The position numbers were made by a program, and so were the translations under genes. A stretch of 4,539 nt of DNA from a virus (taxonomy: Duplodnaviria > Heunggongvirae > Uroviricota > Caudoviricetes): IMG/VR virus record IMGVR_UViG_2778261274_000003; one strand, 5' to 3'. This document shows positions 1-4,539 of this stretch, piece after piece. Each line of letters begins with the position of its first letter. Position 1 is the stretch's first letter. A model generated the notes under the pieces. That model was given only the letters and a program-made list of their open reading frames with translations. It was not told the DNA's origin and did no database searches.

Positions 1-56
1 ACACTGAATCTCCCGTCCAAAAGCGCAAATCATGCCATGCAGGCCAGAAACGGCCA

Positions 57-82
57 TTATTTAAAACCTCGGTTTACAGGAA
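57..82. repeat. 26-bp serine-invertase crossover site (gix/cix/hix-like), left boundary of the invertible segment
   Basis: Sequence TTATTTAAAACC-TC-GGTTTACAGGAA is two imperfect inverted 12-bp half-sites around a 2-bp core (69-70). Its reverse-complement partner is at about 2736-2761, sharing the 12-bp block ACCTCGGTTTAC. It closely matches the Gin/Hin-family crossover-site consensus as I recall it. Confidence 0.8.
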
Positions 83-943
83 ACGGTAAACAGGGCTGGT
101 AACGCCGTGCAAAAAAATGGCGATACCTTGTCCGGTGGGCTTACTTTTGAAAATGACTCAATCCTTGCCTGGATTCGAAATACTGACTGGGCGAAGATTG
201 GATTTAAAAATGATGCCGATGGTGACACTGATTCATACATGTGGTTTGAAACAGGCGACAACGGCAATGAATATTTCAAATGGAGAAGCCGCCAGAGCAC
301 CACAACAAAAGACCTGATGACGCTGAAATGGGATGCACTAAATATTCTTGTTAATGCTGTCATTAATGGCAGTCTTGGAGTTGGTTCGACGAATGCGTTA
401 GGTGGTAGCTCTATTGTTCTTGGTGATAATGACACCGGATTTAAACAGAATGGAGACGGTATTCTGGATGTTTATGCTAATAGTCAGCGTGTATTCCGCT
501 TTCAGAATGGAGTGGCTATTGCTTTTAAAAATATTCAGGCCGGGGATGGTAAAAAATTCACGCTATCCAGCTCCAACAACTCCACAAAGAATGCAACGTT
601 TAATTTATGGGGTGCTTCAACCCGTCCAGTAGTTGCAGAGTTAGGCGATGAGGCAGGATGGCATTTCTATAGCCAGCGAAATACAGATAACTCGGTAATA
701 TTTTCTGTTAACGGTCAGATACAGCCCAGCAACTGGGGGAATTTTGATTCACGCTATGTAAAAGATGTTCGCCTGGGTACGCGTGTTGTTCAATTGATGG
801 CGCGTGGTGGTCGTTATGAAAAAGCCGGACACGCAATTACCGGATTAAGAATCATTGGTGAAGTAGATGGCGATGATGAAGCCATCTTCAGACCAATACA
901 AAAATACATCAATGGCACATGGTATAACGTCGCACAGGTGTAA
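71..943 (+). CDS. Silent alternative tail-fibre C-terminal cassette (receptor-binding region, P2 gpH-like); no start codon of its own
   Basis: Open frame from the crossover site to TAA at 941-943. An in-frame TAA at 62-64, inside the outer half-site, closes it upstream. It ends ...RPIQKYINGTWYNVAQV and is followed 3 nt later by a cognate Tfa gene. The ORF-track start at 107 is a GTG inside this frame and is probably not a real start. Confidence 0.8.
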   Translation, partial: GLQETVNRAGNAVQKNGDTLSGGLTFENDSILAWIRNTDWAKIGFKNDADGDTDSYMWFETGDNGNEYFKWRSRQSTTTKDLMTLKWDALNILVNAVINGSLGVGSTNALGGSSIVLGDNDTGFKQNGDGILDVYANSQRVFRFQNGVAIAFKNIQAGDGKKFTLSSSNNSTKNATFNLWGASTRPVVAELGDEAGWHFYSQRNTDNSVIFSVNGQIQPSNWGNFDSRYVKDVRLGTRVVQLMARGGRYEKAGHAITGLRIIGEVDGDDEAIFRPIQKYINGTWYNVAQV

Positions 944-946
944 ATT

Positions 947-1474
947 ATGCAGCATTTAAAAAATATTAAGTCCGGAAATCCAAAAACAAAAGAACAATAT
1001 CAGCTAACAAAGAATTTTGATGTTATCTGGTTATGGTCCGAAGACGGTAAAAACTGGTATGAGGAAGTAAATAACTTTCAGGACGACACCATAAAGATTG
1101 TATACGACGAAAATAATATTATTGTTGCCATAACCAAAGATGCCTCAACGCTTAATCCCGAAGGCTTTAGTGTCGTTGAGATTCCAGATATAACAGCCAA
1201 TCGTCGTGCCGATGATTCAGGGAAGTGGATGTTTAAGGACGGAACTGTGGTTAAGCGGATTTATACAGCAGACGAACAGCAACAACAGGCCGAATCACAA
1301 AAGGTCGCGTTGCTTTCTGAAGCTGAAAGCGTTATTCAGCCACTGGAACGCGCTGTCAGGCTGAATATGGCGACGGATGAGGAACGCACACGACTGGAGT
1401 CATGGGAACGCTACAGCGTTCTGGTCAGCCGTGTGGATACAGCAAATCCCGAATGGCCACAAAAGCCTGAGTAA
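947..1474 (+). CDS. Tail-fibre assembly chaperone (Tfa), 175 aa, P2 gpG / Mu U-like
   Basis: ATG at 947 with AGGTG about 8 nt upstream. The N-terminus [22 protein letters not shown]...DGKNWYEE is the conserved Tfa N-domain. The 175-aa length matches P2 gpG as I recall it. It sits directly after the fibre cassette stop. Confidence 0.85.
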
Positions 1475-1479
1475 AAATT

Positions 1480-1499
1480 AAGGCCCGATATCGGGCCTT
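1480..1499. terminator. Bidirectional intrinsic terminator (20-bp perfect palindrome) between the convergent Tfa genes
   Basis: AAGGCCCGATATCGGGCCTT is a perfect palindrome with a GC-rich 6-bp stem. T-rich tracts follow on both strands (TTCTCTCATTC on plus, TTAATTTTTAC on minus). It lies in the 28-bp gap between the stops at 1474 and 1503. Confidence 0.6.
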
Positions 1500-1502
1500 C
1501 TC

Positions 1503-2036
1503 TCATTCTGGTTGTTCGGGAAACGTTACTGGCAGGCTGGAGGTGTCTGTAGATTCGACTTTCTGCGCAAAGAGCATCCACTCGGTTAATTTCTGCTTAT
1601 TCTCGTCGGAAATGATGCCCAGCCGTAGCTGTGAGTCCCATAGCTGGGTTTTATCCCTGACAAGTTGCAACAGGCTTTGCTTTTCATTTTCCGCTTGTTG
1701 TCTCTGCTCTTCCTCGGTATAAGTTCGCTTTATCACTACGCCATCTTTGAACATCCATTTCCCCGAAATATCAGCCCGGCGATTTGCTGTAATATCAGGT
1801 AATTCAACGACGCTTGCGCCTTCCGGATTAATTGCTGAAACATCCTTTTCAATACAAATAATAACGCCGTTATGGTCATAGACCATTTTCAAAGTGTCTG
1901 GCTGGAAATTCTTTTGTTCCTCATACCAGTTTTTTCCATCATCTGAATAAAGCCATTTGATGTTAAATTGCTTTGTTAGCTGGTATTGCTCTTTTGTTTT
2001 AGGGTTGCCAGCAGTAATGTTTTTTAAGTGCATCAT
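1503..2036 (-). CDS. Tail-fibre assembly chaperone (Tfa), 176-177 aa, cognate to the currently expressed fibre C-terminus
   Basis: ATG-ATG start at 2036/2033 with GGGGAG about 10 nt upstream, 2 nt after the fibre stop. The N-terminus [22 protein letters not shown]...DGKNWYEE is paralogous to the plus-strand Tfa, and the C-terminal third diverges. Confidence 0.85.
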   Translation of the reverse strand: MMHLKNITAGNPKTKEQYQLTKQFNIKWLYSDDGKNWYEEQKNFQPDTLKMVYDHNGVIICIEKDVSAINPEGASVVELPDITANRRADISGKWMFKDGVVIKRTYTEEEQRQQAENEKQSLLQLVRDKTQLWDSQLRLGIISDENKQKLTEWMLFAQKVESTDTSSLPVTFPEQPE

Positions 2037-2038
2037 CG

Positions 2039-3877
2039 TTAAATACTCCCCGCGTTATACCACGTCCCATTAATGCAATACTGAATTGGCCTTGCCTGTG
2101 TTGTATCAATTAATTCATCACGGTTTCCGTTAACTGAACCCGTAACGACATAACCTGACCTGTCAGACCAGCCGGGACCATTCCATGTCTGAACAGATGA
2201 CAGACCGCCAAGGCGAATACCTGTAATAAACCTTGAGTTACATTCTGCCTGCGTATATGCACCAACATCTCCCGCTGAAGGTTTTCGTGTCGTGGTATAG
2301 AAATCTGACCAACCTAATTCAAACCCATAACCATCACGAGCCGACCTGTAGGAAATGCCACCATTTTTATAATTCACACGGAATTGTACGGCAGGACAGC
2401 TACCAGCATTTATATTAAAGTGAAGAATTAATACAGATGCACCACCAATCAGGGCGTTATATGCACCACTATCCCAATTCCATCCAACGGATGTATCACC
2501 ATTAACAGTATTACCTGTTTGTCGGAGTGCAAATGCATTGACATTTTTGGCACTAATTGAAATATCGCTAGAACCATCAAAACCAACTCCAGCAATTTTT
2601 CGTGCTGTTTTCAGCTTTGTTGCAGTAGCGGCATTGCCGGACAGTTCCCCAGAAAGGCCACCGCTGAATGTTTGTCGATTGGTCCAGGTATTCGCTGTAC
2701 TGAGTAACGGTATTTTCTCCCCGCTTGTGCCGAGTTCTCGTAAACCGAGGTATTCGATAACGGCGGCAACGGTCGATTTCGCAAGAATATCCCGCCCGAC
2801 TTTTGTCAGAGTTGCCAGGCTGGCGACATCATTCCCCGTAAAATACGGAAACCTGTCTGCCGCAGTAGCAAGCCCGGCCAGCGCCGTCAGGGTGGCATCT
2901 TTCGGTTGCTTACCCGCAAGCGCGTTAGTCATGGTGGTCGCAAAATTCGGGTCGTTGCCCAGCGCCGCAGCCAGCTCGTTCAGCGTGTTCAGTGCATCAG
3001 GTGACGAATCTACAAGGGCGGCAATCGCAGCCATAACGAAAGCCGTGCTTGCGATTTGGGTATTATTCGTTCCCTGTCGCGCAGTTGGTGTTGTTGGCGT
3101 TCCGGTCAGCGCCGGGCTGTTTAATGGGGCTTTCTTATTTGTTTCATCCATTACTGCCTTAACCGCTTTCGATGTCGCGGCCAGTGTTTCAGACGTGCTG
3201 TTGGTGGCACTACTGAGCTGGACAATCCCTTTTTGTGCCGTCGTGGCGTCCTGAGCGGTATATTTTGCGTTAGCAAGATCATACGCGGCCTTTACCGCTT
3301 TTGGTGTTGCGGCGAGCGTTTCAGAGGTGCTGTTGGTGGCACTACTGAGCTGGACAAGACCTTTTCGCGCTGTAGTGGCGTCCTGTGCGGTATATTTCCC
3401 GTTAGCAAGGTCATAGGCTGCCTTGACCGCTTTCGGCGTTGCGGCCAGTGCTTCAGACGTGCTGTTGGTGGCGCTACTGAGTTGAACAAAGCCTTTTGCG
3501 GTCAGCGAGGCGTCCGGGTGACGTCGTGACTGTTCATGTTCTTTCAGTTTGTCATTCACGTAATCCACTGTGGCCATAACCATGGTGTTATCCACGGTAA
3601 GCGCCACGGTGGCAGTGCTGGATACGGTCAGAATGGTGCGAAATGTTTGTGCACGTCCGGATCCTTCGGCAACGGCTGGCTTGTAACTTTCGGCAGTATT
3701 GCCCACCGCGATCAAATCGCCGTGCTCATCAAATACACCAATTTCCCGGATCCAGAATCCGCCCGTTTCAGGAGGAATAACCAGCTCCGCAATAATGCGG
3801 TTCTGATGTGTTGCGTCCAGGATGACGCGATTAACAGTATGTCGCCACACCTCATGCACCAGACGGGTCTGCTTCAC
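2039..3877 (-). CDS. Tail-fibre protein, 612 aa as currently assembled (constant N-terminal shaft plus invertible C-terminal receptor-binding domain); apparently 5'-truncated
   Basis: Long ORF with a 132-bp tandem repeat region in the shaft. The crossover site is embedded in frame (…AAVIEYLGLRELGTSGEK…). The C-terminal domain contains GELSGNAATATKLKTARK and ends RPIQYCINGTWYNAGSI, typical of lambda Stf / Mu S / P2 H fibres. The start is GTG with no recognisable Shine-Dalgarno, and an in-frame stop lies 5 codons upstream. Confidence 0.85.
   Translation of the reverse strand: MKQTRLVHEVWRHTVNRVILDATHQNRIIAELVIPPETGGFWIREIGVFDEHGDLIAVGNTAESYKPAVAEGSGRAQTFRTILTVSSTATVALTVDNTMVMATVDYVNDKLKEHEQSRRHPDASLTAKGFVQLSSATNSTSEALAATPKAVKAAYDLANGKYTAQDATTARKGLVQLSSATNSTSETLAATPKAVKAAYDLANAKYTAQDATTAQKGIVQLSSATNSTSETLAATSKAVKAVMDETNKKAPLNSPALTGTPTTPTARQGTNNTQIASTAFVMAAIAALVDSSPDALNTLNELAAALGNDPNFATTMTNALAGKQPKDATLTALAGLATAADRFPYFTGNDVASLATLTKVGRDILAKSTVAAVIEYLGLRELGTSGEKIPLLSTANTWTNRQTFSGGLSGELSGNAATATKLKTARKIAGVGFDGSSDISISAKNVNAFALRQTGNTVNGDTSVGWNWDSGAYNALIGGASVLILHFNINAGSCPAVQFRVNYKNGGISYRSARDGYGFELGWSDFYTTTRKPSAGDVGAYTQAECNSRFITGIRLGGLSSVQTWNGPGWSDRSGYVVTGSVNGNRDELIDTTQARPIQYCINGTWYNAGSI
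2736..2761. repeat. 26-bp serine-invertase crossover site (gix/cix/hix-like), right boundary, embedded in the fibre coding sequence
   Basis: Plus strand TTCTCGTAAACC-GA-GGTATTCGATAA; its reverse complement TTATCGAATACC-TC-GGTTTACGAGAA is the inverted partner of 57-82 with the same TC core. It encodes VIEYLGLRE. Coordinates are +/-1 bp because of the frame discrepancy at line boundary 2700/2701. Confidence 0.8.
3152..3496 (-). repeat. In-frame tandem array (about 2.6 copies) of a 132-bp / 44-aa repeat in the fibre shaft
   Basis: Protein repeats KG[FLI]VQLSSATNSTSE[AT]LAATPKAVKAAYDLAN[GA]KYTAQDATTA[RQ]. The DNA block TCAGA(C/G)GTGCTGTTGGTGGC(A/G)CTACTGAG recurs at plus-strand 3189, 3321 and 3453, exactly 132 bp apart. 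Confidence 0.85.
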
Positions 3878-3885
3878 GCAGGGAA

Positions 3886-4206
3886 TCAGTTTTCAGCATG
3901 GCTGTTGTCCTCGTTGTTCAGTCGTTGCAGTCTGCGCTGCTCCAGTAATTCAATGGCCCGTTTATCCGCGTTACAGGTTTCCAGTGCATCCAGAAGGCGG
4001 TCGCCCCATATACCGAGATTTCCCCATGTGGGAGTATCAGGGAAGGGGGGAGGCATTACCGGTATGGTCAGCGTCTGCGGTATAAGCCGGACTGACGGCG
4101 CTGGCCGTGGCGCGTTCTGCGTGCCTGCGCAACCTGTCAGTAAAACGAGCGTCAGGCAAAGCGTGGGCGCATTCATCTTTTGCAATATCGTTGCGTAGCT
4201 GTTCAC
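3886..4206 (-). CDS. o-spanin (Rz1-like outer-membrane lipoprotein), overlapping the i-spanin gene
   Basis: Lipobox L-T-G-C after a hydrophobic stretch (…TLCLTLVLLTGCAG), then a proline-rich segment (APRPAPSVRLIPQTLTIPVMPPPFPDTPT). It starts inside the i-spanin gene in another frame and runs 150 nt past its stop. The GTG at 4206 has GGAGAG upstream; an alternative ATG is at 4176. Confidence 0.65.
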   Translation of the reverse strand: MNSYATILQKMNAPTLCLTLVLLTGCAGTQNAPRPAPSVRLIPQTLTIPVMPPPFPDTPTWGNLGIWGDRLLDALETCNADKRAIELLEQRRLQRLNNEDNSHAEN

Positions 4207-4444
4207 GTCTGGCCTCTCCGTCCTGATTGCGTTGCTGATTTTCCGCGCGGAGTTGTGCCAGCACCTGCTGCATATCCTGTACCCCGGCGCTGATGATATT
4301 CAGGGTGTCGACGGTACTTTTCAGGGTGCTGGCCTGCGCTTCGTTTCTGGCGTTCTCCCGGCCCAGTGACCACGACAGACGCATGGATGCTCCCCAGGCG
4401 GCAATCAGAAGAAAAGCGACGCCCAGCGTGGGCCAGAGCTTCAT
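4037..4444 (-). CDS. i-spanin (Rz-like inner-membrane spanin), about 135 aa
   Basis: Start at ATG 4444 gives an N-terminal transmembrane segment MKLWPTLGVAFLLIAAWGASM followed by charged, coiled-coil-like sequence. The ATG overlaps the upstream gene stop (ATGA), with GGAG about 11 nt upstream. The ORF-track extension to 4513 overlaps the upstream gene frame and reads as non-protein-like. Confidence 0.6.
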   Translation of the reverse strand: MKLWPTLGVAFLLIAAWGASMRLSWSLGRENARNEAQASTLKSTVDTLNIISAGVQDMQQVLAQLRAENQQRNQDGEARREQLRNDIAKDECAHALPDARFTDRLRRHAERATASAVSPAYTADADHTGNASPLP

Positions 4445-4539
4445 GCCGGATAAACTCCGTGCGGTAACTGAAAATGCGGTCCGTCTTTCAGGGTCTTCCA
4501 GTCGCCGCCCCATTCCACCGGAATATTCAGTTCCCGGCT
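4441..4539 (-). CDS. 3' end of the upstream lysis gene, probably an endolysin (partial; continues beyond the right edge)
   Basis: Open frame ending …SRELNIPVEWGGDWKTLKDGPHFQLPHGVYPA* with its TGA overlapping the i-spanin ATG. Its position immediately before the spanin pair is where endolysins sit. The WGGDW…D.PHFQ tail recalls LAS/M15-type peptidase endolysins, but that is from memory only. Confidence 0.4.
   Translation of the reverse strand, partial: SRELNIPVEWGGDWKTLKDGPHFQLPHGVYPA

Follow-up and report, generated by a model that had tools for sequence, protein, structure and literature searches.

The DNA analysed here (the window) is a stretch of 4,539 nucleotides from a Caudoviricetes record of IMG/VR (IMGVR_UViG_2778261274_000003), and it holds tail-fibre, fibre-chaperone and lysis genes of a P2-like prophage together with the two crossover sites of a DNA inversion switch. 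The late genes occupy the minus strand and follow, from right to left, the order lysA (3' end), lysB, lysC, fibre and chaperone. The features encountered are listed below by position, strand and identity.

1-2, minus strand: first two bases (GT) of a predicted GTG start codon of an invertase gene, the rest of which (about 600 nt) would continue leftwards beyond the window in the source genome, judging from relatives
3-56, minus strand: invertase leader, from the crossover site to the start codon, with the Shine-Dalgarno sequence GGGAGA at 14-9; homologous by alignment to the Mu gixR-gin spacer
57-82, unstranded: left (invertase-proximal) crossover site, 26 bp and gix-like, core dinucleotide at 69-70; identified as an inverted repeat and by alignment with Mu
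70-2747, unstranded: invertible segment, 2678 bp between the two core dinucleotides; delimited by in-silico inversion, and present in inverted form in 102 complete E. coli genomes
107-943, plus strand: alternative fibre C-terminal module (S'v-like), silent in the present orientation; identified from the list of open reading frames (ORFs), the Pfam family Gp34_trimer and in-frame fusion after the flip
947-1474, plus strand: alternative tail-fibre assembly chaperone (U'-like), silent in the present orientation; Pfam Caudo_TAP, E = 2.5e-36
1480-1499, unstranded: G+C-rich, terminator-like hairpin between the convergent chaperone genes, an 8-pair stem followed by a T run (minus strand)
1503-2036, minus strand: tail-fibre assembly chaperone of the orientation now joined to the fibre gene; Pfam Caudo_TAP, E = 4.8e-36
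2039-3877, minus strand: 5'-truncated P2 gpH-type tail-fibre gene, with its variable C-terminal part at 2039-2747 and its constant part from 2748 to the deletion junction
2735-2760, unstranded: right crossover site, within the fibre gene, core dinucleotide at 2747-2748
3863-3874 (context 3848-3901), unstranded: junction of a 3.56-kb deletion, with the imperfect microhomology ACGGGTC..GCTT
3886-4083, minus strand: lysC (Rz1-like o-spanin); Pfam LysC and annotation in relatives
4037-4444, minus strand: lysB (Rz-like, DUF2570); the exact protein occurs in P2-like prophages
4441-4539, minus strand: 3' end of lysA (Peptidase_M15_4 endolysin), running past the right edge; coordinates mapped from a related locus (L012)

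Between the crossover sites, two sets of a fibre C-terminal part and its chaperone face each other. The set that is silent at present begins with the module at 107-943, an ORF of 278 amino acids whose true frame runs in from the crossover site. The hairpin that separates the two sets has the sequence AAGGCCCGATATCGGGCCTT and is terminator-like on the minus strand. The fibre gene joined to the other set lacks its first 50 codons and its native start (the H protein of a relative has 661 amino acids, and homology to its gene stops 150 nt before the start), and the Pfam profile Phage_tail_fib is matched over positions 47-149 of 150 only. The GTG at 3877 that opens the resulting ORF of 612 amino acids has no obvious ribosome-binding site. 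Within the constant part of the fibre, positions 3156-3551 are made up of three tandem repeats of 132 nt (44 amino acids), which correspond to the repeats of Pfam Phage_fiber_2; compared with the first copy, they are 100%, 86% and 64% identical.

The left crossover site reads TTATTTAAAACCTCGGTTTACAGGAA and the right site reads TTCTCGTAAACCGAGGTATTCGATAA, the second being inverted relative to the first. Their cores, TC at 69-70 and GA at 2747-2748, represent the same dinucleotide on opposite strands, and two inverted 26-bp sites sharing a central dinucleotide are what is expected for inversion by Din-family enzymes. The sites agree with each other at 21 of 26 positions, and a copy of the Mu gix site, whose core dinucleotide is the same, matches the left one at 24 and the right one at 22 of 26 positions. 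When the segment is inverted in silico between the cores, the constant part of the fibre joins the ORF at 107-943 in frame to give a continuous product of 667 amino acids, compared with 612 in the present orientation, which is likewise in frame. With the constant N-terminal part of the fibre outside the segment and two opposed C-terminal parts with their chaperones inside it, the window has the anatomy of a tail-fibre host-range switch of the Mu G-segment type, located in a P2-like (Peduovirus-type) prophage.

Both forms of the segment occur in natural genomes. In 102 complete E. coli genomes, a 1402-nt query that stands for the right junction after a flip is covered over its whole length, and the orientation of the window is found in 43. 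Three farm or calf isolates named 33E, 33F4 and 32F4, with chromosomes of 5,288,964, 5,288,976 and 5,288,962 bp, respectively, show 99.8-99.9% identity to the window. Strain 33E (NZ_CM147847.1) carries the flipped form at 99.9% identity, and strains 33F4 (NZ_CM147849.1) and 32F4 (NZ_CM147846.1) carry the orientation of the window, which suggests that the segment has inverted within one clone. Because opposite orientations are present in near-clonal isolates, inversion must occur on short timescales and the switch is active in the family; both orientations have been found for this family, not for the source strain. The three isolates have the same invertase protein (WP_000905061.1), which 33E shares with the O145:H28 and UTI89 relatives described below.

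The first crossover site has just 56 bases on its left, which an earlier note on this DNA, made from the letters alone, had described as devoid of a serine-recombinase N-terminus. This description holds: six-frame translation of positions 1-110 yielded no match to the pattern M-x-IGY-RVST-DQ in any frame. What these bases do appear to carry is the leader of the invertase gene. The minus-strand end of the window reads ...GGGAGATTCAGTGT, in which the Shine-Dalgarno sequence at 14-9 is followed by start-codon bases at 2-1, and a longer reading of the same end, ...GGACGGGAGATTCAGTGT, places G(2) and T(1) at the beginning of a GTG start codon. The leader at 3-56 is identical in nine relatives. In addition, the crossover point and the invertase start are 67-68 bp apart here and 67 bp apart in Mu (G boundary at 35025, gin start at 35092). 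An in-frame TTG farther upstream (21-19) was considered as a start codon and rejected, as it adds only six residues and the annotated start differs. A scan of window positions 1-200 revealed no sigma-70 consensus promoter. By comparison with relatives, the translation-initiation region of the invertase is thus predicted to be present in the window, and the gene itself to be absent save for two bases.

The window was compared by megablast with 5426 complete E. coli genomes, 43 of which cover positions 1-3874 in one place, with a maximum coverage of 85%. The best matches over positions 1-3874 are E. coli O145:H28 strains, with 99.9% identity, and the intact O145:H28 prophage differs from the window at only two positions in this interval; the UTI89 prophage has 98.1% identity to it. 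Both O145:H28 strain 16003 (locus L001) and UTI89 (locus L002) possess a minus-strand gene of 200 codons annotated as 'recombinase family protein', whose start at position 4002 of locus L001 corresponds to window position 2. The encoded protein opens with VLIGYVRVSTNDQ... (the CDS translation at both loci is VLIGYVRVSTNDQNTDLQRNAL...), has Resolvase and HTH_7 domains and shows 85% identity to Mu Gin in an alignment of 181 residues. There are two substitutions in the first 120 residues, and the divergence from Gin lies past approximately residue 120, in the C-terminal DNA-binding region, with a total length of 199 amino acids versus 193 for Gin. Near-identity to Gin in the first part, followed by divergence, makes the invertase look mosaic.

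The earlier note had envisaged a resolvase/invertase ORF of roughly 180-190 amino acids, to be sought in the 0.6-1 kb upstream of position 1. Such an ORF does lie beyond position 1 in relatives (199 amino acids, with a range of 193-199). It is not 0.6-1 kb away, since the gene appears to start inside the window, at base 2.

Other loci give a consistent picture. An exact look-up of the 278-amino-acid ORF returned ten distinct contexts, and all ten have a gene with Resolvase and HTH_7 domains, of 193-199 amino acids, at the same offset; six of these contexts are P2-like, with gpU and a tape-measure gene beyond the invertase, and four are Mu-like, with com and mom. Among 15 fetched loci that carry the 82-nt site plus leader of the window with no more than 10 mismatches, an intact invertase ORF (193-199 amino acids) is found at the equivalent of window position 2 in 14. 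Where the 82 nt are the same as those of the window, the intact ORF of 199 amino acids is present in every case (nine of nine). In a spread sample of 60 E. coli matches to window positions 1-260, a recombinase is annotated in all matches that reach query base 1, and two matches that start at query base 4 were inspected and have the invertase gene at the same place. A Resolvase plus HTH_7 gene is thus seen to adjoin the crossover site in relatives, and in the source it would lie outside the window. These relatives, the loci with similar leaders and a layout equal to that of Mu lend support to the proposal that a Gin/Pin/Cin-type invertase would be encoded directly past the left edge.

Some of the loci inspected show further variation. 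Mu-like prophages (L016, L018, L020 and L022) share with P2-like prophages the identical 278-amino-acid module as well as the invertible segment and the invertase gene's 5' half; the P2-like set with the identical module comprises L013-L015, L017, L019 and L021. In five P2-like loci with the same LysB (L004, L005, L006, L008 and L011), the stretch that separates the fibre gene from the invertase contains three to five short ORFs with Collar domains, which occur in both orientations and look like a multi-cassette, shufflon-like version of the switch. The exception among the 15 loci is strain S3 (L026, NZ_CP107142.1 25697-28804), in which the locus is degraded and exemplifies a switch that has been orphaned. 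Its invertase gene is annotated as a pseudogene without the C-terminal part and breaks off at 60 codons; chaperone-gene fragments and a class I SAM-dependent methyltransferase come next. The leader of S3 differs from that of the window by 3-4 mismatches.

The inversion system of Mu depends on a Fis-bound enhancer, and the earlier note placed this element within the 5' coding region of the invertase gene. In the first 100 nt, which cover part of the Mu Fis-enhancer region, the gene of the relatives and Mu gin are identical, and in the first 200 nt there are three mismatches. A scan with a degenerate Fis consensus gave the same candidate matches in the relatives' gene and in Mu gin, and in the relatives' gene it gave no candidate pair at a spacing of 48 bp, which is the spacing of the Fis sites in the Hin enhancer. 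A passage of PMC3798978 that cites Kahmann (1985) locates the Mu stimulating site 'within the invertase gene'. The same paper describes the Hin system as a pair of 26-bp sites with an enhancer of 65 bp, which contains two Fis sites and is located about 100 bp away from a hix site (PMC3798978). The placement made in the earlier note agrees with the passage on Mu. Going by the sequence identity to Mu gin, the enhancer region of Mu is likely to be essentially retained in the invertase gene of the relatives, outside the window, and would be expected to work as it does in Mu.

The right part of the window is altered by a deletion. The window is colinear with locus L001 over positions 1-3874 and consists of L001 positions 4001-7874 joined to L001 position 11432 onward. 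The genes S, V, W, J and I are lost entirely, R is lost for the most part and H is without its first 50 codons, such that lysC and the first codons of R are fused to codon 51 of the fibre gene H. From the stub of R, an ATG at 3899 leads into an out-of-frame peptide of 15 amino acids. The window accordingly does not hold the complete P2-like late gene set (lysis, R, S, V, W, J, I, H, G). The lysis genes were recognized by annotation and homology, and the match of LysB to Pfam DUF2570 scores 20.7 bits, which is below the curated cut-off of 26.6 bits. Having lost genes for tail completion and the baseplate as well as the 5' part of its fibre gene, the prophage is defective. Whether or not its invertase is intact, flipping of the segment probably has no effect any more on the host range of viable virions produced by the element on its own. 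The finding of only two differences from the intact O145:H28 prophage in 3874 positions argues for a recent deletion rather than long decay.

No other copy of the deleted arrangement was encountered. A 45-nt query across the junction has no exact match in genome, metagenome or viral contig collections, and the junction is spanned by no record among phages, plasmids and the 5426 complete E. coli genomes. The truncated fibre likewise has no exact-protein match for any of the starts that would give 612, 606, 603, 555 or 512 amino acids. A fibre match of 514 amino acids was rejected as the source, since the draft contig it derives from starts within the gene and departs from the window sequence past position 3694. 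The exact 65-amino-acid variant of LysC is rare and was found in one metagenome contig of 618 bp only, where gene R adjoins it and there is no deletion; the LysB that adjoins this rare variant is listed in 5458 blocks and is too common to be informative.

We consider it very probable that the window presents a Mu-type switch in a defective P2-like prophage, with a Gin-type invertase gene that starts at window position 2 and is 'missing' through the cut of the window alone. Because the window is cut at the start codon of the invertase, the gene appears to be absent, and no biological oddity needs to be explained. In the predicted mechanism, two gix-like sites flank 2.7 kb that contain two opposed sets of a fibre C-terminus and its chaperone, and a Gin-type serine invertase, encoded by a minus-strand gene immediately outside the segment, would act on both sites. 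The remaining part of this gene, about 600 nt past the left edge, would include the 5' coding region that in Mu holds the Fis-bound enhancer. From the identical leader, the two bases of the start codon and a difference of two positions in 3874 from the intact prophage, we infer that the source genome has the same intact invertase. To the left of position 1, the sequence would then be expected to continue with G-CTGATTGGCTATGTAAGGGTATCAACAAATGACCAG... into an ORF of about 195-200 codons. Some points count against this explanation: the large deletion makes further decay plausible, the invertase of S3 is truncated and the leader has no recognizable sigma-70 promoter.

The alternative that survives best, although we judge it unlikely, is that the switch is frozen or orphaned. 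The invertase gene of the source would be truncated, disrupted or deleted past position 1, and the segment would either be fixed or be flipped in trans by another invertase of the Din family. The prophage is already defective, and strain S3 demonstrates that an orphan state does arise, with a similar leader followed by an invertase stub of 60 codons annotated as a pseudogene. Gin, Cin, Pin and Hin complement one another, and among E. coli genomes with a match to the window the median number of matching places is two, a figure that refers to matches to the whole window and so does not prove a second invertase gene. However, the 82-nt site plus leader is 100% identical to that of nine relatives, each of which has an intact gene for a protein of 199 amino acids, whereas the degraded copy of S3 has a leader that has diverged. 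The near-identity of positions 1-3874 to an intact prophage also argues against a long period of decay.

A related proposal, which we regard as rather improbable, concerns the remnant as a whole. Either the source invertase is lost or truncated and the orphan switch resides in a baseplate-less P2 remnant, where it would be flipped only by a trans-acting Din invertase, or the remnant is kept for a host function, a notion that derives from the direct fusion of the lysis cassette to the truncated fibre, the chaperones and the switch. If true, either version would depart only modestly from what is known of prophage decay. Finally, one could hold that there is no switch, that the repeats at 57-82 and 2735-2760 arose by chance or are remnants, and that there is no reason to expect an invertase. 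This view can draw on the agreement of the sites at only 21 of 26 positions, yet it is exceedingly improbable given their matches to Mu gix with identical core dinucleotides and the presence of both orientations in nature at 99.9% identity, and chance inverted repeats are ruled out by the in-frame fibre of 667 amino acids and the 102 flipped genomes.

Under the preferred reading, in which the invertase gene is intact and merely cut from view, the locus has little significance beyond its correct annotation, with the start of the invertase at base 2 and bases 3-56 as its leader. The switch probably has no phenotypic output in the source strain, as the prophage that carries it is defective. The case does illustrate that a Mu-type switch can be recognized, and its absent enzyme correctly placed, from sequence alone.

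The biology is that of the well-known Gin/gix system in a P2-like prophage. The order of elements in the Mu G segment is the same, with the constant part of the fibre, a site, Sv-U, U'-S'v, a second site and an invertase transcribed away from the segment. Mu also shares the distance of 67 bp from crossover to invertase, and the 85% identity of the relatives' invertase to Gin has been noted above. In the Mu-like phage D108, the segment is about 91% identical over 74% of window positions 1-2800. Unlike in Mu, however, the cassette of the window resides in a P2-like prophage and its constant part is of the gpH type, with Phage_tail_fib and Phage_fiber_2 repeats. Likewise, gpU and a tape-measure gene lie past the invertase in the relatives, whereas com and mom occupy this place in Mu.

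The C segment of P1 and P7 (cin) and the P segment of e14 (pin) belong to the same family of invertible fibre segments, although the host phage differs. In P1/P7 and e14, too, the invertase gene abuts one crossover site, and the P1 and P7 segments show about 91-92% identity to that of the window over roughly 70% of positions 1-2800. Closer in context are the P2-like Escherichia phages 503458 and 520873 and also Xuanwuvirus P884B11 and P88, which have the same invertible fibre cassette; for 503458 and 520873, the region that matches window positions 1-2800, at 94-95% identity, includes an annotated 'DNA invertase'. These are complete phages, whereas the prophage of the window has no S, V, W, J or I, has lost most of R and has an H that lacks its 5' end.

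The Hin/hix flagellar switch of Salmonella provides a more distant parallel, since its enzyme belongs to the same subclass as the invertase of the relatives. The motif by which Hin contacts Fis, Q-x-x-R-L (residues 151, 154 and 155; PMC3798978), is present in the relatives' invertase as EQIARL. The two switches nevertheless differ in design: the hin gene is located inside its invertible segment and a promoter is flipped, whereas at the locus described here the invertase would lie outside the segment and coding sequences for alternative C-termini are exchanged.
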